From a virus (lineage: Duplodnaviria > Heunggongvirae > Uroviricota > Caudoviricetes), in IMG/VR virus record IMGVR_UViG_2545824644_000015, positions 1-38,209 of that record: a stretch of DNA of 38,209 nucleotides; one strand, 5' to 3'. The translations under genes were made by a program, and so were the position numbers. The notes under the pieces were generated by a model. That model was not told the origin of the DNA. It did no database searches and saw only the letters and a program-made list of their open reading frames with translations. Below are positions 1 through 36,584 of this stretch, piece by piece. Within the stretch, counting starts at the first letter, position 1; each line of letters opens with the position of its first letter.

Positions 1-1158
1 ATGCTCACCGTTAAGCAGATTGAAGCAGCAAAGCCGAAAGAAAAACCATACCGCCTTCTCGATGGTAATGGCCTGTACCTTTATGTCCCTGTATCAGGGA
101 AAAAGGTATGGCAGCTTCGCTACAAGATTGACGGTAAGGAGAAAATCCTGACCGTCGGAAAATATCCGCTTATGACTTTGCAGGAGGCAAGGGATAAAGC
201 ATGGACCGCGAGGAAAGACATCTCGGTTGGCATCGATCCGGTAAAAGCGAAAAAGGCTTCGTCTAACAACAATTCCTTTAGCGCCATTTACAAGGAATGG
301 TACGAGCACAAGAAGCAAGTCTGGTCAGTAGGCTATGCAAATGAACTTGCAAAAATGTTTGATGACGACATTTTACCCATCATCGGCGGTCTTGAGATTC
401 AGGATATTGAGCCGATGCAACTGTTGGAAGTAATCCGCAGATTTGAAGATCGCGGTGCAATGGAGCGAGCCAACAAAGCCCGCAGAAGATGCGGCGAGGT
501 TTTCCGTTACGCTATTGTCACTGGTAGGGCTAAATATAACCCGGCACCTGACCTTGCTGACGCCATGAAAGGATACCGCAAGAAGAACTTCCCGTTTCTT
601 CCTGCAGACCAGATCCCGGCATTCAACAAAGCACTGGCAACATTTTCAGGAAGTATCGTATCGCTCATTGCGACCAAAGTTTTACGCTACACAGCCCTAA
701 GAACGAAAGAGCTTCGTTCCATGCTATGGAAGAACGTCGATTTTGAAAACAGGATTATCACCATCGACGCCAGTGTGATGAAGGGTCGCAAAATTCATGT
801 GGTTCCTATGTCAGACCAGGTGGTTGAACTTCTCACTACGCTAAGCTCTATCACCAAACCAGTATCAGAGTTTGTTTTTGCCGGGCGCAACGATAAGAAA
901 AAGCCAATCTGCGAGAACGCGGTATTACTTGTGATCAAACGAATCGGCTATGAGGGTCTGGAAAGCGGTCACGGATTCAGGCATGAATTCAGCACGATTA
1001 TGAACGAGCACGAATGGCCTGCTGACGCTATTGAAGTGCAACTGGCACATGCCAACGGCGGATCTGTGCGTGGGATTTACAACCACGCTCAGTATCTCGA
1101 TAAGCGCAGGGAGATGATGCAGTGGTGGGCGGACTGGCTTGATGGGAAGGTGGAGTAG
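1..1158 (+). CDS. int: Tyrosine site-specific integrase (P4-like N-terminus)
   Basis: 385 aa ORF; N-terminal MLTVKQIEAAKPKEKPYRL...GLYLYV motif typical of phage integrases; C-terminal HGFRHEF (H-x-x-R) and RGIYNHAQY catalytic-Tyr region. Confidence 0.9.
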   Translation: MLTVKQIEAAKPKEKPYRLLDGNGLYLYVPVSGKKVWQLRYKIDGKEKILTVGKYPLMTLQEARDKAWTARKDISVGIDPVKAKKASSNNNSFSAIYKEWYEHKKQVWSVGYANELAKMFDDDILPIIGGLEIQDIEPMQLLEVIRRFEDRGAMERANKARRRCGEVFRYAIVTGRAKYNPAPDLADAMKGYRKKNFPFLPADQIPAFNKALATFSGSIVSLIATKVLRYTALRTKELRSMLWKNVDFENRIITIDASVMKGRKIHVVPMSDQVVELLTTLSSITKPVSEFVFAGRNDKKKPICENAVLLVIKRIGYEGLESGHGFRHEFSTIMNEHEWPADAIEVQLAHANGGSVRGIYNHAQYLDKRREMMQWWADWLDGKVE

Positions 1159-1330
1159 TTATTACAACGATTCTTATAAAAAAGAAAAGCCTTGCACATA
1201 TAGCAAAGCTTTTCACTTCTCAGGATTTCTTACACCAAGAAACCCTCAACAATAACAAATGCAATTTTATATGTTAACTACATATGCATTTCATTAAAAC
1301 CAATCATAAATGCTTATCATACTTTAATTG

Positions 1331-2458
1331 CTATAATTGATCGCCTTCTATTTTTTCAACTCGAGTGGTTGAAACATCATTCTTAAATCCACTCCACCAT
1401 TTTCTTAGCTTATTGTTTATTGGCTTTTCAAAAAACAAATACATCATTATTGATATAAATAATGAAGCAAACAGAGCCATTACTATAAATTTAATTACAT
1501 TTATAGCACCAAGACCAGAAACATTAAAGAACTTGCTCAATGTACTGATTACTATAGTGTGGACCAAGTAAAATGAAAAAGAAGCATCACCTAAAAGTAT
1601 CATAACTTTATTTGATATTATTTTTGAAATAATACCACCATTAAACGAAAACACTAATATTGAAAAGGCCATTGATGGTATAAAAAGCGCATCATACTGT
1701 AATCCATTGCTATTTTGACTTTTTGCCACCATATAGACAGACATTAGGATAAAGACTACAGATGATATTTCAGCAAATGATAGAACTAAATATGACGGCT
1801 TTGACTTAAACTCAAAATATAGTTTACACAATATAATACCGATTAAAAAGTCAGGCAACCTATTAAAAGGGTTTATGTAAAAGAACCAGTGAGAGAACGC
1901 ATCACTAATTTCCCCATAGCTTGCCATGTAAATAACATTAATTAAAATTAACGCAGCAAACAAAGCGAGCATTCTTTTTCGCGCGAAAATTATAAAACAA
2001 AAAGAAACATAAAAGAACATTTCTACAGAAATGCTCCAGGATACTGCATTGAATGAGAAATAGTCTTCCTTATCTACTGAGTAAGACTGAATTAATAGTG
2101 CATTTTTTATTATAGACAATATATTTGGTGAGAATCCACCACCTAATATTGAGTGTCCAACTATAAACACAGTCAAGCAAAGCAAATGTACTGGATATAT
2201 TCTAAATACTCGATGCGCAAGAAAATCAACGAAACTTCCGTTTCCATTACGCAATGAAATAGTAAAACTATATGTTAATATAAACCCAGATAAAATAAAA
2301 AAGAAAGTAACACCAGAATACCCAAGTTTAAAATATTCAAATGATGAAGCAAAATCTCTATTACTTGAATTTTGTATTACCGCCATGTGGCTAAAAAACA
2401 CCCCAAGGGCTGCAAATGCCCTTAGGGATGTCAGGCTATTTAGTCTTTCTGCGCGCAT
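1331..2458 (-). CDS. oac: Integral-membrane acyltransferase-3 family protein, probable O-antigen O-acetyltransferase (serotype conversion)
   Basis: Highly hydrophobic multi-TM ORF; N-terminus LTSLRAFAALGVFFSHM typical of acyltransferase-3; very AT-rich; sits between tailspike and integrase as oac does in Sf6. Start chosen at internal Met 13. Confidence 0.75.
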   Translation of the reverse strand: MRAERLNSLTSLRAFAALGVFFSHMAVIQNSSNRDFASSFEYFKLGYSGVTFFFILSGFILTYSFTISLRNGNGSFVDFLAHRVFRIYPVHLLCLTVFIVGHSILGGGFSPNILSIIKNALLIQSYSVDKEDYFSFNAVSWSISVEMFFYVSFCFIIFARKRMLALFAALILINVIYMASYGEISDAFSHWFFYINPFNRLPDFLIGIILCKLYFEFKSKPSYLVLSFAEISSVVFILMSVYMVAKSQNSNGLQYDALFIPSMAFSILVFSFNGGIISKIISNKVMILLGDASFSFYLVHTIVISTLSKFFNVSGLGAINVIKFIVMALFASLFISIMMYLFFEKPINNKLRKWWSGFKNDVSTTRVEKIEGDQL

Positions 2459-2567
2459 GATACACCTATGTTTTAATGCACAAAAATGCAACAAAAGATT
2501 GATGATACCATAAGCAACAGAAAAATCACATGATCACTTACTCACGTTCAACTTGTACCATCAGAAT

Positions 2568-5108
2568 CTAAATTATCTGCGTCACTGACAATGCTTTCTT
2601 TAACACCACTCCTCCGCTCGTTGTTGCTCCCTTTGAGTACTCAAAGGAGATATTGGCTGAAATGCCAAGATTCTCATCAGGACAATACCACCAAATTCCA
2701 ATAGGGAGCACAGATGCCTTGTCATAACTGACAGTGCGATCATACGACGACTGGTACCCATTGAAGTCATACCATTTAAACCCAGTAATTGCGTTGCCAG
2801 CAATCATGCAATCAGTGCTCATAACTACACCAAACGCATTCTTAATATTAGATGCAACTAATATGGCACTCATTGCGATATTCCTAAAGCTACATGACGT
2901 CACAGAGTATCCATTTGTATTTGCGTTTATAACTCCTATTTCTCCAAGGAAAGTCGTTGTCCTTATAGATCCATTAAAAAAAGATGTTGATTTTGTCCCT
3001 CTAAGACACACTCCCACATCAGACTCAAACGCGCTATCAGATATATCGATATACGTTGAACTTGCTGATGGATTATTCTTATAAAAGCTAACTCCGTAAT
3101 TTAGATTATTGAAATTACAACTATTAACCCTTACAGATGATACTCTTGCATCATATAAATAAAGGCCTGCCGTCATCCCTTCAAGGTGTGTGTCGTTTAA
3201 TGGAAACACTGCATTATCCCCAGCCTCGTTAGGATCATTCATTAATGTTTTAGGGTTTGTGAATTTATTTTTAATTATCGATGTAAACTCATCACAAAAA
3301 AAGTCATGTGATGCGCTATTAATTACCTTAAACCCTGAGAATCCGAATGGCTTCCCACCAGAGATTATTGCCAAACAAAATGCTTGCGCCCCACCGCGTA
3401 TTCTATATTGATTTGATTTTGATTCAAATTTAAAATTGCCTTGTAATGTTGAGTTGGTGATACAACTAAAAGAGTTACCTATGTATGATACGTTATTATT
3501 ATATGATGACGTTATGCTATAGCTGTTTACTTTATTTCCAGATATAAGAACATTATCACAAAAAAATTGAGCACATATCCCTGATTTTGATGTAACAACA
3601 TTATCAGACATTATGCTATGAATAACCATTGAGTGAAAAGTTATGCCCCAATGATCATGGCTATACGAAGTTGATATTAATGGATCGTTTATTATATTTC
3701 CAGTGCAGTTAACATAACAAACTTGCCTATATACTCCTATTGTTGAATCATTCAACCCAAGAGTTGAGCAAATGTTATCTTTAATAGAGCAAACAGAACT
3801 TGATGTGGCATAGCTAAACATAGCTTCTGGGATATTCCCTGTTAATCTATTCCTCTCGAATCTACCAGAATAACAATAATATCGCATCTCAACATGGACA
3901 TTATGGAAGTTACAACCAATCACTTCTGGCTCGATCTGAGACAAAAGCATGATTCTTCTTAGAGCATTGCTACTGCTTTTCATCGTCACACCATCTTTAA
4001 TTTTGAATGGCGTAAGGTTACCTGTTGGGAACCCAAATTTCGCAGTCCCAGCCACCTGATTTACCACCAGAGGTTGCGCCAAAATAGCCTTATTGGTAGT
4101 TGTATGACCTATAATTTTTGTTACCTGAATGAACTGAGATTGGTATCCATTCAAGTTACGTGTAAGTGCCAACCCATCTATGCTGTCAGCAGGTGTGGTG
4201 GATTTTTCCGCTTCATCAATACAGAACGGATATCCATTATCAATGACGACATATTGCCCTGTGCGATCTACACCATCGAGATATACCTCAGAGTGCCCTG
4301 CAGATGCAGGCTGAGAAAAAACTGTCATAGTTGGGAAGTCATATGGCTCAACCCTAAAATGATTACCCAATGTTATTGTGCCACGACCATATATACCTTT
4401 TGCCCCGGCTGGCGCTGTATAATCTGTTGTGGTGGTAAGGTCAGCTCCTGTAATGTTTACTTCTTCTCCGAAGTTAAACGCTGCCGTCAGTGCCTGCTCG
4501 GTTGTTACAAACCTATTGGTGTAGTTAAGGATATGGTTTAAATCATATCCGTTAAGATTCCCTACAGACTTCCAGTTTGAATCTGGTGAACTACCAGGAG
4601 GGACAGTTAATGGAACTGACAGATCACCAGTATAAATGTAATACCACCCAGTTGATGAATAGAATAGTGCCTGATATTTACTTGTTATCGTTGCACCAGA
4701 AGCAAAGGATACATTTTGCAGGCGTTTATAAACATTAAATCTAAAATTTTCATTAGCGTATAAAGAAAACTGATCTGGGTCGTACCCTAAAACATTCGGA
4801 AAATAGAACTGCTTCGCCCCATACGCATCGTACACAGCCATAGAATGGCCTTGCACAGTTACGAACTTGGCAATCTGTCCGTTATATACCGGGTAACCAG
4901 CAGCGTTAATGATGATTGGTTGAGAAACAGGAACGTGAGAACCGTCTTCGTTCTCCACATAAACCTGAATCCGGTTTTCAGGATTTACAGGGTCAGTGTC
5001 AATTTTACCGATATAAATTTCGCCATTAGCTACGGCTTTAAAAGAACGAGCCATAGTGAAGAGTTGCGAAGGCATCGATACAATCACATTAGCTGTAATG
5101 TCTGTCAT
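2568..5108 (-). CDS. Tailspike protein (P22-type head-binding N-domain fused to divergent receptor-binding domain)
   Basis: 846 aa; N-terminal ~115 aa [45 protein letters not shown]... matches the conserved P22/Sf6/HK620 tailspike head-binding domain as remembered; rest is an AT-rich, Asn/Ser/Thr-rich beta-helix-like domain. Confidence 0.9.
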
Positions 5109-23026: not shown

Positions 23027-23499
23027 ACCTCAATCTCTCTAACCGTTCCGCCTGCTTCTTTGAATTTTGCAATCAGGCTGTCAGCCTTATGCTCGAACTG
23101 ACCGTAACCAGCGCCCGGCAACGAAGCCCAGATATTGCTGCAACGGTCGATAGCCTGACGAATATCACCGCGATCAATCATCGGTAAAGCGCCACGCTCT
23201 TTAATCTGTTGCAGTGCCACAGCGTCCTGGCTTTTCGGAGAGAAGTCTTTCAGGCCAAGCTGCTTACGATAGGCATCCCACCAACGGGAAAGAAGCTGGT
23301 AGCGCCCGGCGGCTGTTGATTTGAGTTTTGGGTTTAGCGTGACAAGTTTACGAGGGTGATCGGAGTAATCAGTGAATAGCTCTCCGCCTACAATGACGTC
23401 ATAACCATGATTTTTGGTTTTCTGACGTCCGTTATCAGTTCCCTCCGACCACGCCAGCATATCGAGGAACGCCTTACGTTGATTATTGATTTCCACCAT
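23023..23499 (-). CDS. R: Endolysin (lambda R-type lytic transglycosylase)
   Basis: 158 aa; near-identical to lambda R as remembered ([28 protein letters not shown]...). Confidence 0.95.
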
Positions 23500-23806
23500 C
23501 TTCTACTCCGGCTTTTTTAGCAGCGAAGCGTTTGATAAGCGAACCAATCGAGTCAGTACCGATGTAGCCGATGAACACGCTCGTTATATAAGCGAGATTG
23601 CTACTTAGTCCGGCGAGGTCGAGAAGGTCACGAATGAACCAGGCGATAATGGCGCACATCGTTGCGTCGATTACTGTTTTTGTAAACGCACCGCCATTAT
23701 ATCTGCCGCGAAGGTACGCCATTGCAAACGCAAGGATTGCCCCGATGCCTTGTTCCTTTGCCGCGAGAATGGCGGCTAACAGGTCATGTTTTTCTGGCAT
23801 CTTCAT
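23483..23806 (-). CDS. S: Holin/antiholin (lambda S-type, dual start)
   Basis: 107 aa [20 protein letters not shown]..., Met1-Lys2-Met3 dual-start motif. Confidence 0.95.
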
Positions 23807-24048
23807 GTCTTACCCCCAATAAGGGGATTTGCTCTATTTAATTAGGAATAAGGTCGATTACTGATAGAACAAATCCAGGCTACTGTGTTTAGTAATCAGA
23901 TTTGTTCGTGACCGATATGCACGGGCAAAACGGCATGAGGTTGTTAGCGCAATCTCCTGCCACCCGCTTTCACGAAGGTCATGTGTATAAGGCCGCAGCA
24001 TAACTATCACTGATGAATTCAGGACATCCAGTGGCTACGGCTCAGTTA

Positions 24049-24124
24049 TGGTGCTGGTTAACGGACTTGAACCGCTACCCATTCGCTTACAAGGCGACTG
24101 CTCTACCATTGGAGCTAAACCAGC
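24049..24124 (-). tRNA. tRNA-Thr (anticodon UGU), CCA encoded
   Basis: Hand-folded cloverleaf: 7-bp perfect acceptor stem, perfect 4-bp D stem, anticodon loop CUUGUAA, T-loop TTCAAGT, discriminator A then CCA. Confidence 0.7.
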
Positions 24125-24129
24125 ATATT

Positions 24130-24204
24130 TGGCGGGACAGCGTGGACTCGAACCACGATAAGAAGGTTAACAGCCTTCCGTAATTACCTTTATACGACTG
24201 ACCC
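24130..24204 (-). tRNA. tRNA-Asn (anticodon GUU), CCA encoded; one acceptor-stem mismatch
   Basis: Hand-folded: T-arm CGTGG-TTCGAGT-CCACG, anticodon loop CUGUUAA, acceptor stem 6/7 paired, D stem 3/4 paired; could be a degenerate copy. Confidence 0.55.
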
Positions 24205-24268
24205 AAATAAAAAATCCCGAAACCGTTGTGCAGGCTCTAACTATTACCTGCGAACTGTTTCGGGATTG
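24205..24268 (-). terminator. Late-operon terminator tR' (lambda-like)
   Basis: Long hairpin aatcccgaaac...gtttcgggatt followed by U-run on minus strand; flanking sequence matches lambda 6S RNA/tR' region as remembered. Confidence 0.8.
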
Positions 24269-24397
24269 CATTTTGCAGACCTCTCAGCCTGCGATGGTTG
24301 GAGTTCCAGACGATACGTCGAAGTGACCAACTAGGCGGAATCGGTAGTAAGCGCCACCTCTTTTTATCTCACTACCACAACGAGCGAATTAACCCAT

Positions 24398-24889
24398 CTA
24401 TCCCATACTGGAGAATTCACCATGATATTTTATCCTGGCATTTTCCATTGCCTTTCTCGCCTCCTCGATATCGTCAAAACACCCTACATGAATCCTTTTA
24501 CCATTGACCCTAATTCTTCCAACCCACTTGTTTGCAGCAGAATTAAAAGTCACCCCCTTCACACCAGATGAATTGTTTTTCCTCATCTTGCTGTTCCATG
24601 AGTTTTGAGTGTTAGTAACAACACGAAGATTGGCTATCCGGTTATCAGATCTATCACCATTAATATGGTCAATCACATCGGTTGGCCAATCATTGTAAAC
24701 CATCAGCCATGCAATTCTATGGACATATAGCCGCATCCCATAAAGTTTTACCTGCAGATATCCATTTGTTTTATAGCCAACAACAGCGCCATAGATAAAT
24801 CTAGAAGACCGAGGTGGATTCTTCCATGTAAGAATTCCAGTATCTGGATTGTAATTAAAAAGTCTCAATGCATCTTCACGTTTTAACAT
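24398..24889 (-). CDS. HNH homing endonuclease (HNH_3 with AP2-like DNA-binding region)
   Basis: 163 aa with VIDHINGDRSDNRIANLRVVTNTQN HNH core and C-terminal GV(K/T)...W...GRIRVNGK...GCF AP2-type repeat; AT-rich. Confidence 0.85.
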   Translation of the reverse strand: MLKREDALRLFNYNPDTGILTWKNPPRSSRFIYGAVVGYKTNGYLQVKLYGMRLYVHRIAWLMVYNDWPTDVIDHINGDRSDNRIANLRVVTNTQNSWNSKMRKNNSSGVKGVTFNSAANKWVGRIRVNGKRIHVGCFDDIEEARKAMENARIKYHGEFSSMG

Positions 24890-25089
24890 AGGCGAACCAC
24901 ATAGATATTAGAGCCTGCTGACATAGAAATATCACCACGAGAGAAGTCGCCAAAGGCGATATTTCTCAGGCTCTATTCCTATGTGCTCTCGAGTTTATGA
25001 TGCGCATGTCAGTGCGCTTAGAACTTAAAGATGAGGTGGGTAAAAACTGAAAGAATGTGAACAGATATAAATCTGCCATTCTTGGGTTA

Positions 25090-25118
25090 AATTTACCCAA
25101 CTTTATTCAAAAAGTCAA
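25090..25118 (-). promoter_or_regulatory. Late promoter PR' with Q-binding element
   Basis: Minus strand TTGACT-17 bp-TAAATT immediately downstream of Q; spacer ttttgaataaagttggg nearly identical to lambda PR' spacer as remembered. Confidence 0.8.
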
Positions 25119-25160: not shown

Positions 25161-25784
25161 CTAACGTGTGACCGCATTCAAAATGTTGTCTGCGATTGAC
25201 TCTTCTTTGTGGCATTGCACCACCAGAGCGTCATACAGCGGCTTAACAGTGCGTGACCAGGTGGGTTGAGTAAGGTTTGGGATTAGCATCGTTACAGCGC
25301 GATATGCGGCGCTTGCTGGCATTCTTGAATAGCCGACACCTTTGCATCTTCCGCACTCTTTCTCAACAACTCTCCCCCACTGCTCTGTTTTGGCTATATC
25401 AACCGCACGGCCTGTACCGTGGCAATCTCTGCATCTTGCGCCCGGCGTCGCGGCACTACGGCAATAATCCGCATAAGCGAATGTTGCGAGCACTTGCAGT
25501 ACCTTTGCCTTAGTATTTCCTTCAAGCTTTGCCACGCCACGGTATTTCCCCGATACCTTGTGTGCAAATTGCATCAGATAGTTGATAGCCTTTTGTTTGT
25601 CGTTCTGGCTGAGTTCATGCTTACCGCAGAATGCAGCCATACCGAATCCGGCTTGTGATTGCGCCATCCCCATAGCAGCCATCACATCAGTACCGGAAAG
25701 AGAGTCAGAAGCCGTGGCCCGTGGTGAGTCGCTCATCATCGGGCTTTTTGGCGAATGAAATTTAGCTACGCTTTCGAGTCTCAT
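25161..25784 (-). CDS. Q: Late-gene antiterminator Q (lambda type)
   Basis: 207 aa, essentially identical to lambda Q as remembered (MRLESVAKFHSPKSPMMSDSPRATASD...). Confidence 0.95.
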   Translation of the reverse strand: MRLESVAKFHSPKSPMMSDSPRATASDSLSGTDVMAAMGMAQSQAGFGMAAFCGKHELSQNDKQKAINYLMQFAHKVSGKYRGVAKLEGNTKAKVLQVLATFAYADYCRSAATPGARCRDCHGTGRAVDIAKTEQWGRVVEKECGRCKGVGYSRMPASAAYRAVTMLIPNLTQPTWSRTVKPLYDALVVQCHKEESIADNILNAVTR

Positions 25785-34248: not shown

Positions 34249-34419
34249 ATGCAACAGTTCGCTATTGCAGGGGCGGCATCGGTTCGCCCTTTCAACCCAA
34301 TTTTATCGGTGCAGCATTCACGAAAAAATATTTTAACCGGAGCAGACTTTAAACAACCAAGAATGAAAAGTTTGCTCGAAAAGCTTTGGGATATTTTGAA
34401 ACAACAAGGCCGTCCATGA
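34249..34419 (+). CDS. CIII-like protein (putative FtsH inhibitor)
   Basis: 56 aa MQQFAIAGA...LLEKLWDILKQQGRP; resembles lambda CIII ends (MQYAIAG...DILNQPG); aaggag RBS. Confidence 0.5.
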   Translation: MQQFAIAGAASVRPFNPILSVQHSRKNILTGADFKQPRMKSLLEKLWDILKQQGRP

Positions 34420-34586
34420 GTTTTACAGATAACTGGTCAGACGAAGAATTCATTCGTCAGATGAAAGAATTAATCGGTAACGAAGGAGATATTCATGTCA
34501 CTTGCAACCACAGTGAAGGAGAGCAAGTTACAGAGACGCATGTACACGCAGCAGGCGTTAATGTATCGCCAGAAGGGAGATCGTGA
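34416..34586 (+). CDS. Hypothetical protein (kil position)
   Basis: 56 aa; ATGA overlap with upstream stop; overlaps next ORF in another frame. Confidence 0.35.
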   Translation: MSFTDNWSDEEFIRQMKELIGNEGDIHVTCNHSEGEQVTETHVHAAGVNVSPEGRS

Positions 34587-34675: not shown

Positions 34676-35281
34676 ATGAGCAAAGAATTTTACGCAAGAC
34701 TGGCAGCTATTCAGGAGAATCTGAACGCGCCAAAGAATCAGTACAACTCATTCGGAAAATATAAATACAGAAGCTGCGAAGACATTCTTGAAGGCGTTAA
34801 GCCGCTACTGAATGGCCTGTTTTTATCAATCAGCGATGAAGTTGTGTTGATTGGTGATCGGTATTATGTGAAAGCCACGGCAACTATTACCGATGGCGAA
34901 AACAGTCATACGGCAACCGCTCTTGCACGAGAGGAAGAAAGCAAGAAAGGAATGGATTCTGCACAAGTTACTGGAGCTACAAGCTCTTATGCACGCAAGT
35001 ATTGCCTCAATGGTTTGTTCGGCATTGATGATGCGAAAGATGCAGATACAGACGAGCATAAACATCAGCAGAACGCAGCAGCAAAGCAATCAAAACCATC
35101 ACCTACACCTGAACAGGTTCTAAAGGCATTCACTGACGCAGCAATGCAAAAAAACACCGTAGAAGAGCTTAAACAGGCGTTCGCCAAAGCGTGGAAGATG
35201 CTCGAAGGCACACCGGAGCAGCACAAAGCGCAGGACGTTTACAACATCAGACGAGATGAATTAGAAGGGGCAACTGCTTAA
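34676..35281 (+). CDS. erf: Erf single-strand annealing recombinase
   Basis: MSKEFYARLAAIQENLNAPKNQYNSFGKYKYRSCEDILEGVKPLL... near-identical to P22 Erf N-domain as remembered. Confidence 0.9.
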   Translation: MSKEFYARLAAIQENLNAPKNQYNSFGKYKYRSCEDILEGVKPLLNGLFLSISDEVVLIGDRYYVKATATITDGENSHTATALAREEESKKGMDSAQVTGATSSYARKYCLNGLFGIDDAKDADTDEHKHQQNAAAKQSKPSPTPEQVLKAFTDAAMQKNTVEELKQAFAKAWKMLEGTPEQHKAQDVYNIRRDELEGATA

Positions 35282-35661
35282 TGGCACATTCGATTACAGT
35301 AAGACTAAACAAACCCGCAAGAGAGTTTCAGGCCGGGGAAAATATCGGATTCAACATCCGTGCTGGCGTTCAGTATTACGATCGCCAGACAAAAAAGAAA
35401 GAATGGACAAACTACAGCGCCGTTGTATTTGCCAAGCCTGGAGCGCAAGCGGATTACTACCGTAGTGTTCTTGTTGAAGGTGGCATTGTGGAAATTACCG
35501 GAGAAAACATCAGGGTTGATGTTTATCAGGGGCAAAATGGTCAATCAATCACCCTTGAATTACTGAATGCAAAGATTGGATTTGCAGCTTCAGGAAATGG
35601 CCAGCAGCAAAGTAGTAACCAGCAGAACACTCCTGAATACGACGATTCCATCCCCTTCTGA
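35281..35661 (+). CDS. Putative single-stranded DNA-binding protein (SSB-like acidic C-terminal tail)
   Basis: 126 aa; C-terminus ...EYDDSIPF resembles the SSB partner-binding tail (D-D-x-I-P-F); directly downstream of erf. Confidence 0.5.
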   Translation: MAHSITVRLNKPAREFQAGENIGFNIRAGVQYYDRQTKKKEWTNYSAVVFAKPGAQADYYRSVLVEGGIVEITGENIRVDVYQGQNGQSITLELLNAKIGFAASGNGQQQSSNQQNTPEYDDSIPF

Positions 35662-35684: not shown

Positions 35685-35981
35685 ATGCCAGCGCCTCTGT
35701 ATGGTGCGGATGACCAGCGCCGCTGTTCCGGCAAATCCGTATCGGAGGTGCTGGATAAATTCAGAAAAAACTACGACCTGATAATGTCGCTACCGCAGGA
35801 AACGAAAGAGGAAAAGGAATTTCGCCACTGTATATGGCTTGCAGAGAAAGAAGAACGCGAGCGAATTTACCAGACATCAATCCGACCATTCCGCAAAGCC
35901 ACATATACCCACTTCCCTGAATATATCGACCCGCGCCTGCGTAATTACCGCTCACGCTATGGCGCTATCAGTAATGACTGA
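35685..35981 (+). CDS. Abc2-like anti-RecBCD protein
   Basis: 98 aa [10 protein letters not shown]...[13 protein letters not shown]; position after erf as in P22; identity from memory only. Confidence 0.5.
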
Positions 35982-35991
35982 GGAATTTACC

Positions 35992-36156
35992 ATGAGAGGA
36001 CTTGCATACAATCCCGGCATTCTTCCGGCAGAAATGATTATTCTCCAACGCGTAAAGCCAATGCCATCGAGAGAGGAATTACTTAAGAGAAATTCTTTTC
36101 CGTCAGTAAATCAAAACAAATATCTGAATGCGATGTGGCGGAGTGGGAAGAAATGA
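35992..36156 (+). CDS. Small hypothetical protein
   Basis: 54 aa; gagga RBS. Confidence 0.4.
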
Positions 36157-36584
36157 AGCAAATGTCACTAATTGAGATGGATGGTTTTCTGAAAGGTAAA
36201 TGCATCCCAAGTGATTTAAAGGTTAACGAAACAAACGCTGAATATCTTGTCCGTAAGTTCGGTGAACTTGAATCAAAACTGGAAACGGCGTTGCGGGAGT
36301 GTCGTTCTGCTGGAATCACGATTGATAACCTTGAGGCTAAATGCGCGAAGATGGCTGCTGAAAATACCTCACTTAAGCAATCTGAGAAGGAATTTAATGA
36401 CTTTTGTCGTGAGGAGTTTAGCGAATGGGAAGATGATATTACTGAAACCCAAGCCACCGATGCTTTTCTGGCTGAAGTACGGGCGCAGGGCGTGGAGATG
36501 TTTGCTGACCATCTGTTGTGCCCAGACCTTGATGACACTATCCGTGACTTTGCTGCCCAGCTTCGCAAAGGAGGCAACCAGTGA
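36153..36584 (+). CDS. Hypothetical protein (Ea/Ead-like early-left region)
   Basis: 143 aa acidic coiled-coil protein; ATGA overlap. Confidence 0.5.

Follow-up and report, generated by a model that had tools for sequence, protein, structure and literature searches.

Tandem tRNA genes for Asn(GUU) and Thr(UGU) were reported downstream of the late antiterminator gene Q in phage SfI, and likewise in Sf6, ST64T and p21 (PMC3636060), and the genome announcement of phage 21 also lists two tRNA genes (PMC9119081). Discussion of the cassette goes back to the Sf6 genome paper, and the phage L literature describes it as well. Here we analyze such a pair, located at positions 24049-24204 on the minus strand of the 38,209-bp virus record IMGVR_UViG_2545824644_000015, the whole of which is referred to below as the window. 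The Asn-Thr cassette is already known, being annotated, published and widespread. Both genes in the window are genuine tRNA genes, and our best reading of their sequence is that they encode two functional elongator tRNAs and form the first element of the late operon. We consider it likely, with a probability of roughly 0.7, that these late-operon tRNAs sustain the decoding of ACA and AAY codons while being refractory to tRNases of the OLD and AriB type, and that they travel as a mobile cassette among lambdoid and P22-like phages.

The 176-bp module is 98-99% identical in ~59 phage records, where it is annotated as tRNA-Thr plus tRNA-Asn; its carriers include phage 21, Sf6, SfI, HK446, Kapi1, mEp506, BTP1 and SPN9CC. 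Of 5426 complete E. coli genomes, 353 carry the cassette as well. The module shares 98.9% identity over 175 bp with phage 21 and Sf6; with HK446 and Kapi1 the figure is 99.4%. The Thr gene of the window is identical at all positions (76/76) to those of phage 21, Sf6 and HK446, and the Asn gene matches the copies in the same three phages at 74/75, with the lone difference in the D-loop. That base, at window position 24185 (Asn position 20), is A in the window and in the Klebsiella phage described below, and C in phage 21, Sf6, HK446 and L; A20/C20 is the sole difference between the tRNAs of the window and those of phage 21. The HK446 records, RefSeq (NC_019714.1) and GenBank alike, carry zero tRNA annotation, yet the full Asn-Thr cassette lies at ~35097-35252. 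A 2026 preprint gives HK446 "a single" Thr(UGU) tRNA (10.64898/2026.07.10.737580), and the HK446 sequence also holds Asn.

The cassettes of phage 21, Sf6, SfI, HK446, Kapi1 and BTP1 resemble that of the window in having both tRNAs, in the same order, with the 5-nt spacer and a position that abuts the tR' T-tract upstream of the holin gene. HK446, Kapi1 and mEp506 further share the lambda-type Q/pR'/tR' and S flanks (98% over 999 bp), whereas phage 21 and Sf6 have a Q/qut/tR' region of their own (21 type). Unlike the window, phage 21, Sf6, SfI, HK446, Kapi1 and BTP1 have no HNH endonuclease in the pR' leader. Phage L and ST64T carry a homologous cassette in the same slot, and the Asn gene of L is the phage 21 copy, one D-loop base off that of the window. 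Their second tRNA, however, is annotated as Leu-UAA, is 4 nt shorter, differs in its anticodon loop and yields no ARAGORN call. In Salmonella phage L cII-101 (compared stretch 601-672; ST64T is the same) this positional homologue of tRNA-Thr has a poorly paired anticodon arm. Compared by sequence, the second tRNA of L/ST64T is probably a decayed copy, and since it looks decayed, the second tRNA of the cassette can apparently be lost with Asn kept. Finally, Klebsiella phage ST101-KPC2phi6.1 has Asn and Thr genes that are 90-92% identical to those of the window in the same antiterminator-holin slot (compared stretch 519-838), but within an expanded array, Asn-Phe-Thr-Arg, that includes two extra tRNAs.

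The tRNAs of Shiga toxin (Stx) phages of the Sp5/933W type are Ile and Arg, for the rare AUA and AGA/AGG codons. An earlier reading of the window made from its sequence alone (the sequence-only reading) had placed the pair in the slot where Stx phages carry their tRNAs. The comparison agrees with that placement, as the tRNAs of Sp5 (Stx2a) lie between tR' and stx2AB, and in phages of this type they have Q-pR'-tR' on their upstream side and the late lysis genes downstream (PMC7547250). In Sp5, however, a promoter and transcription start site have been mapped between tR' and the tRNAs (PMC7547250), whereas the window has neither the room nor the motif. The discovery value of the locus is small, given that dozens of phage genomes and hundreds of E. 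coli prophages already have the cassette annotated and that the function of Thr was characterized in 2025-26. Its value is that of a clean natural case, in which a temperate phage carries a minimal set of tRNAs with anticodon arms free of the recognition motifs of two host or prophage tRNases.

The tRNA pair and its place in the late operon

ARAGORN makes only two tRNA calls in the 38,209-bp window, and their coordinates match exactly the two minus-strand tRNA genes claimed by the sequence-only reading. The same two genes are above threshold against Rfam RF00005 (gathering score 29), tRNA-Thr with 61.5 bits (E=4e-11) and tRNA-Asn with 55.3 bits (E=2e-9), the latter 26 bits above the gathering score. 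Read along the transcript, tR' comes first, followed by Asn, a 5-nt spacer, Thr and S, which corrects the earlier listing of Thr before Asn. The elements of the cassette are as follows.

24130-24204, minus strand: tRNA-Asn(GUU), 75 nt, encoded CCA, G73 (ARAGORN, Rfam)
24125-24129, minus strand: inter-tRNA spacer AAUAU, 5 nt, read from the sequence and of equal length in phage 21 and Sf6
24049-24124, minus strand: tRNA-Thr(UGU), 76 nt, encoded CCA, A73, G1-C72/C2-G71 (ARAGORN, Rfam)

The encoded CCA and canonical T-loops (GGTTCRA) that had been noted are present in both tRNAs, and when the arms are parsed, U8, A14, G18G19, U33, A37 and the UUCRA T-loops are all found in both. In E. coli, the identity rules of the synthetases are G34U35U36 plus G73 for Asn, and G1-C72, C2-G71 and G35U36 for Thr. 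The window Asn carries the identity set of asparaginyl-tRNA synthetase (AsnRS), GUU and G73, and the window Thr carries G1-C72, C2-G71 and G35U36.

The Asn acceptor and D-stem mismatches reported earlier are real (U4:U69 and U13:U22), the variable loop of the window Asn has 4 nt, and in Thr a G27:A43 mismatch leaves an anticodon stem of 4 bp. Taken with the decay that can happen in this slot, where the second tRNA of L/ST64T is no longer called by ARAGORN, these irregularities could be read as signs that one or both genes are decaying, functionless passengers of mosaic recombination. The comparison with ST101-KPC2phi6.1 argues otherwise. The Asn genes differ at three doubly compensated pairs (6:67, 7:66 and 28:42) and one loop base, the Thr genes differ at two doubly compensated pairs (3:70 and 6:67) and two loop bases, and zero pair-breaking substitutions were found between the window and the Klebsiella copies of Asn and Thr. 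These five compensated pairs, together with the lack of disruptive changes, point to selection on tRNA structure. Moreover, U4:U69 and U13:U22 in Asn and G27:A43 in Thr are themselves kept in the Klebsiella phage. Both tRNAs score far over threshold, and the cassette is better conserved than its flanks when the window, phage 21 and Sf6 are compared. A Thr tRNA identical to that of the window works in vivo (PMC12445682; 10.64898/2026.07.10.737580), and its G27:A43 mismatch belongs to the resistance mechanism (PMC12445682). We consider functionless passengers very improbable. The suspicion that Asn may be degenerate is likewise not upheld, as this gene scores 55.3 bits, has the AsnRS identity set and has a compensated Klebsiella homologue with the same mismatches. 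Recent capture from the E. coli host was considered as an origin for the pair and rejected, the phage Thr being 70% identical to thrU/thrT and the phage Asn 62% identical to asnT.

The flanks had been described as lambda-like, and they are, with 97.7% identity in two pieces. The estimate that about 165 bp of the lambda tR'-S spacer had been replaced also proved accurate. Measured from the tR' T-tract to AACTGAGCCGTAGCC, two anchors that lambda and the window share, the interval is 163 bp in lambda and 159 bp in the window. The left junction falls inside the T-tract common to the tR' terminators of lambda and phage 21; the right junction is at AACTGAGCCGTAGCC, common to lambda, phage 21 and Sf6, where lambda homology restarts. 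E. coli prophages with this Q-HNH-leader but no tRNAs lose homology at 24207, within the same T-tract. Because the tRNA-less prophages diverge at this same T-tract, the tRNAs behave as a discrete, exchangeable cassette. The 163-bp spacer of lambda was also tried as a decayed tRNA relic and rejected, as its alignment score of 44 compares with 33.4 ± 8.4 for shuffled sequences (z=1.25; 115/1000 as good).

The elements that surround the cassette, in the order in which they would be transcribed, are listed here.

25161-25784, minus strand: late antiterminator Q, lambda type, 207 aa (Pfam PF03589 Antiterm, E=1.3e-57)
25090-25118, minus strand: late promoter pR', TTGACT-17-TAAATT (promoter scan; aligns with HK446/lambda pR')
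25083-25078, minus strand: -10-like pause element AAGAAT, 3' of pR' (AACGAT in lambda and HK446)
24399-25075, minus strand: HNH_3+AP2 endonuclease insertion of ~680 bp in the pR' leader, with its open reading frame (ORF) at 24398-24889 (homology break)
24268-24398, minus strand: rest of the 6S leader RNA region (lambda type), where the alignment shows near-identity to lambda
24205-24267, minus strand: intrinsic terminator tR', with a hairpin at 24215-24267 and the T-tract TTTTTTATTT at 24205-24214
23807-24048, minus strand: lambda-like untranslated spacer of 242 nt from Thr to S (alignment, megablast to lambda)
23483-23806, minus strand: holin S, lambda family, the first late gene past the cassette (Pfam PF05106, E=7.3e-30)

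Over the 3' end of Q and the sequence downstream, identity to lambda and HK446 Q is 96-99%, and the alignment of pR' to HK446/lambda has few substitutions and continues to ...AATGG at 25076. The tR' terminator differs from that of lambda by 1 substitution; its RNA fold has a free energy of -33.1 kcal/mol (z=-3.55), and none of 200 shuffles was equally stable. G1 of tRNA-Asn abuts the tR' T-tract with a 0-nt gap, TTTTTTATTT being followed directly by GGGTCAG.

A simple consensus match for sigma-70-like sites was used as a promoter scan. It returned zero sites on the minus strand in 24205-24838, and the only minus-strand sites upstream of the cassette are pR' and one within the HNH ORF. A separate tRNA promoter was considered and set aside, there being no sigma-70-like site or room between the tR' T-tract and G1 of Asn, although a simple consensus scan may miss one. 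Late, Q-dependent expression is favored because pR' and the site in the HNH ORF are the only ones found and no promoter would fit ahead of G1 of Asn. That the tRNAs would be expressed late under Q, as had been suggested, is thus the most economical reading, only pR' being suitably upstream, though we infer such expression rather than observe it.

By analogy with lambda, in which it is established that pR' fires constitutively and that RNA polymerase halts at tR', transcription in the window would begin and stop in the same way, given the conserved sequence. Polymerase modified by Q would then read through tR' into Asn-Thr-S-R-Rz and beyond, as the position of the genes and the lack of a promoter motif suggest. 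RNase P and exonucleases or 3' trimming would free tRNAs that already end in CCA. Host AsnRS and threonyl-tRNA synthetase would charge them, consistent with the identity elements and with the published activity of an identical Thr in vivo.

Anticodon arms and tRNA-cutting nucleases

Classic P2-lambda interference has P2 OLD as its effector, a nuclease that kills by cleaving host tRNA-ThrU in the anticodon stem (Govande et al. 2025, PMC12445682). It recognizes a paired CNG motif at positions 28-30/40-42, and it cuts tRNA-Asn(GUU), Lys and Val more slowly (PMC12445682). Thr(UGU) tRNAs of phages rescue cells from OLD, and related phage tRNAs needed the UGU anticodon to do so (PMC12445682). In particular, the "tRNA-Thr21" of phage 21 gave cells protection against P2-OLD and was refractory to cleavage in vitro, and its resistance is based on a shortened anticodon stem plus C28U/G42A (PMC12445682). 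The Thr(UGU) tRNA of HK446 provides strong counter-defense against OLD for HK97, HK542 and Bas34 (10.64898/2026.07.10.737580). A second nuclease, AriB of the PARIS system, has Lys(UUU), Thr(UGU) and Asn(GUU) as targets and cuts them within the context U36AAUC, between positions 40 and 41; mutation of U39 abolishes cleavage, and the Lys, Thr and Asn variants of T5 jointly neutralize PARIS (PMC12409363).

We compared the positions recognized by both nucleases in host, window and T5 tRNAs. The numbering was validated by the T5 Lys value, which agrees with the numbering of the source paper.

Host thrU: nt 36-41 UAAUCA; 28-30/40-42 CUG/CAG; anticodon stem 5 bp
Host asnT: nt 36-41 UAAUCC; 28-30/40-42 CGG/CCG; anticodon stem 5 bp
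Window Thr: nt 36-41 UAAGCG; 28-30/40-42 UCG/CGA; anticodon stem 4 bp
Window Asn: nt 36-41 UAACCU; 28-30/40-42 AAG/CUU; anticodon stem 5 bp
T5 Lys: nt 36-41 UAAACC
T5 Thr: nt 36-41 UAAGCA
T5 Asn: nt 36-41 UAAGUU

Host thrU and asnT carry both the paired CNG recognized by OLD and the UAAU recognized by AriB, whereas Thr and Asn of the window have neither. The window Thr has the anti-OLD features named for tRNA-Thr21, namely the UGU anticodon, an altered CNG and a shortened stem, and because its sequence is identical to that of the tested Thr of phage 21 and HK446, we count its resistance to OLD as demonstrated. Resistance of the window Asn to OLD and AriB is predicted from the loss of the recognition motifs, and resistance of both tRNAs to AriB from the loss of the U36AAU39/C40-N41 context (cut between C40 and N41). 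Phage copies of this kind would thus escape OLD- and AriB-type tRNases. The pair resembles the resistant tRNAs of the T5/T4 type (anti-PARIS, anti-OLD and anti-retron-Eco7), in which the targeted host anticodon is kept and the anticodon arm is mutated, and Lys, Thr and Asn of T5 lack U39 as do Thr and Asn of the window. The T5/T4-type tRNAs, however, belong to lytic phages with large arrays under their own early or middle promoters, in contrast to a temperate phage with two tRNAs behind a Q-controlled terminator and no Lys(UUU).

The chief selective value of the cassette is probably insensitivity to host or prophage Toprim tRNases that cut these isoacceptors. Since the substrate lists of OLD and AriB share both isoacceptors, Asn(GUU) and Thr(UGU) may be a matched counter-measure to ATPase-Toprim tRNases (P2 OLD, PARIS AriB and relatives) rather than an accident of codon usage, a suggestion that we put forward tentatively and at somewhat less than even odds. 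If true, the lambdoid tRNA-Asn would be a second nuclease-resistant replacement tRNA, overlooked in current work, and nuclease resistance of Asn would explain why Asn and Thr travel together. The tR'-gated placement would in that case time the tRNA supply so as to shield late-protein synthesis in particular.

HK446 encodes both an OLD trigger, Gp33, and an OLD inhibitor, gp27/Oad2 (10.64898/2026.07.10.737580). The early-left recombination locus of the window is HK446-like. It has a Gp33 homologue at 34416-34583 on the plus strand (96% identical), and other HK446-like genes, all on the plus strand, lie at 34676-35281, 35281-35661, 35685-35981 and 36153-36584. Homologues in this locus include Erf (99.5% identical), gp31 (95%), the anti-RecBCD protein Abc2 (97%) and gp27/Oad2 (57%). 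Judged by these identities, the phage appears to combine three elements that bear on one defense system: a trigger of OLD, a candidate protein inhibitor of it, and a tRNA that resists it. PADLOC, applied to 8 accessory ORFs of the window, identified no defense system, the only hits being helix-turn-helix domain matches of a CI-like repressor.

Codon demand and the proposed role

Codons were counted in 18 late genes (6096 codons) and 22 early genes of the window, with 85 annotated K-12 coding sequences (28,735 codons) as the baseline. ACA occurs at 19.2 per 1000 codons in the late genes versus 5.6 in K-12 (3.4-fold), with an enrichment in the phage of 3.1- to 3.4-fold (17.4-19.2 versus 5.6 per 1000). 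As a share of Thr codons, ACA accounts for 31% in late genes and 10.7% in K-12 (odds ratio 3.75, Fisher p=2.5e-20). Asn codons stand at 50.2 per 1000 in late genes versus 36.0 in K-12 (1.4-fold), and in the coat gene 17 of the 20 Asn codons are AAC. In the codon-usage comparison that the sequence-only reading had proposed, the ACA signal is clear and the Asn signal only modest.

These counts bear on a simpler explanation, in which codon supply is the sole selected function, boosting scarce ThrU for ACA as well as tRNA-Asn, and nuclease resistance is a by-product of divergence. Single-copy ThrU is the sole reader of ACA in E. coli. No other E. coli tRNA has the UGU anticodon (PMC12445682). A similar ACA bias is seen in SfI (17.3 versus 7.1 in the host; PMC3636060), the use of AAC in the coat gene was pointed out for phage L (PMC8022706), and the cassette heads the late operon. 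However, AGA/AGG (8-fold) and ATA (3-fold) are enriched at least as strongly as ACA without a matching phage tRNA, so that codon demand alone fails to predict an Asn and Thr pair, and TCA and GGA, with enrichment equal to or above that of ACA, have no matching phage tRNA either. The SfI authors found no bias that would explain Asn (PMC3636060). Furthermore, overexpression of host ThrU was unprotective where the phage Thr protected (PMC12445682; 10.64898/2026.07.10.737580), and the substitutions in both tRNAs fall on OLD/AriB determinants (27:43, 28:42 and 39). Codon supply as the only selected function is thus unlikely, though it is the strongest of the alternatives that we weighed. On the reading that we prefer, codon supply and resistance would act together, with phage tRNAs maintaining the decoding of ACA and AAC/AAU during the late-protein burst, above all where host tRNAs are being cut, and themselves escaping nucleases of the OLD and AriB type.

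Several points weigh against this preferred reading, beginning with the enriched AGA/AGG and ATA codons just mentioned. Expression, processing and charging of the tRNAs in the window are something we infer from position and sequence only, and the phage L paper left undecided whether the tRNAs are cleaved out of the late transcript or have a promoter of their own (PMC8022706). The published protection by Thr was seen with the tRNA expressed from plasmids under constitutive or inducible promoters rather than in its native late-operon setting, and Q-dependent timing may be too late for nucleases that are triggered early. The Thr of HK446 alone did not rescue lambda or relieve toxicity in a recB-null background, and HK446 escapes OLD chiefly via Oad2, the authors of the preprint suggesting that its tRNA may have another purpose (10.64898/2026.07.10.737580). 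For the window Asn, resistance is predicted from sequence, its anticodon stem has the full 5 bp, and the Asn of ST101-KPC2phi6.1 has C28-G42 and so keeps the paired CNG, versus A28-U42 in the E. coli/Shigella/Salmonella version. Finally, Lys(UUU) is the prime PARIS target and is required for rescue (PMC12409363), and the window has no tRNA-Lys(UUU) (two tRNAs only by ARAGORN), so the cassette cannot neutralize PARIS alone.

The surrounding prophage and the HNH insertion

By homology, the window is an E. coli prophage of mosaic make-up and P22-like (Lederbergvirus-type) character. Patches of it match phiv205-1, CUS-3 and Kapi1 at 95-96% identity, and none of the records alone reaches 80% coverage. 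The prophage state raises one further explanation for the cassette, that it replaces a host tRNA gene disrupted by integration. HK446 integrates at thrW, a tRNA-Thr gene, and the idea of an "adaptation to temperate lifestyle" has been offered for HK446 (10.64898/2026.07.10.737580). Nevertheless, thrW encodes Thr(CGU) and not UGU, the P22-type attP rebuilds thrW upon integration (PMC8022706), and the P22 thrW attP core was not found in the window in a search that allowed up to 3 mismatches. Compensation would also leave tRNA-Asn unexplained, and tR' would hold expression low in the lysogen, just when the tRNA would be needed. We regard this explanation as scarcely credible, and resistant, late-expressed tRNAs remain the reading that we favor.

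Positions 1-5108 of the window hold an integrase gene (1-1158, plus strand), a gene for an O-antigen O-acetyltransferase-like protein (2458 to 1331, that is 1331-2458 on the minus strand; PHROG 3333) and a tailspike gene (2568-5108, minus strand). This segment has the look of a moron for serotype conversion, as is typical of Sf6-like phages.

The leader between pR' and tR' is interrupted by the HNH insertion. Homology to lambda/HK446 stops at 25076 and restarts at 24398, with a pentamer (A/G)ATGG at both junctions, and the ORF at 24398-24889 matches Pfam HNH_3 (E=5.7e-17) and AP2 (E=5e-8). Zero records in the phage collection have this arrangement of an HNH gene in the pR' leader. It is present in 16 of the 5426 complete E. 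coli genomes, 5 of them with the tRNA cassette and 11 without it. The HNH cassette lies on the same transcript as the tRNAs, upstream of tR' and outside the tRNA cassette, just past the -10-like sigma-dependent pause element. As pR' is constitutive, lysogens too could transcribe the HNH ORF, and the sequence where the Q-loading paused complex normally sits is replaced by the insertion.

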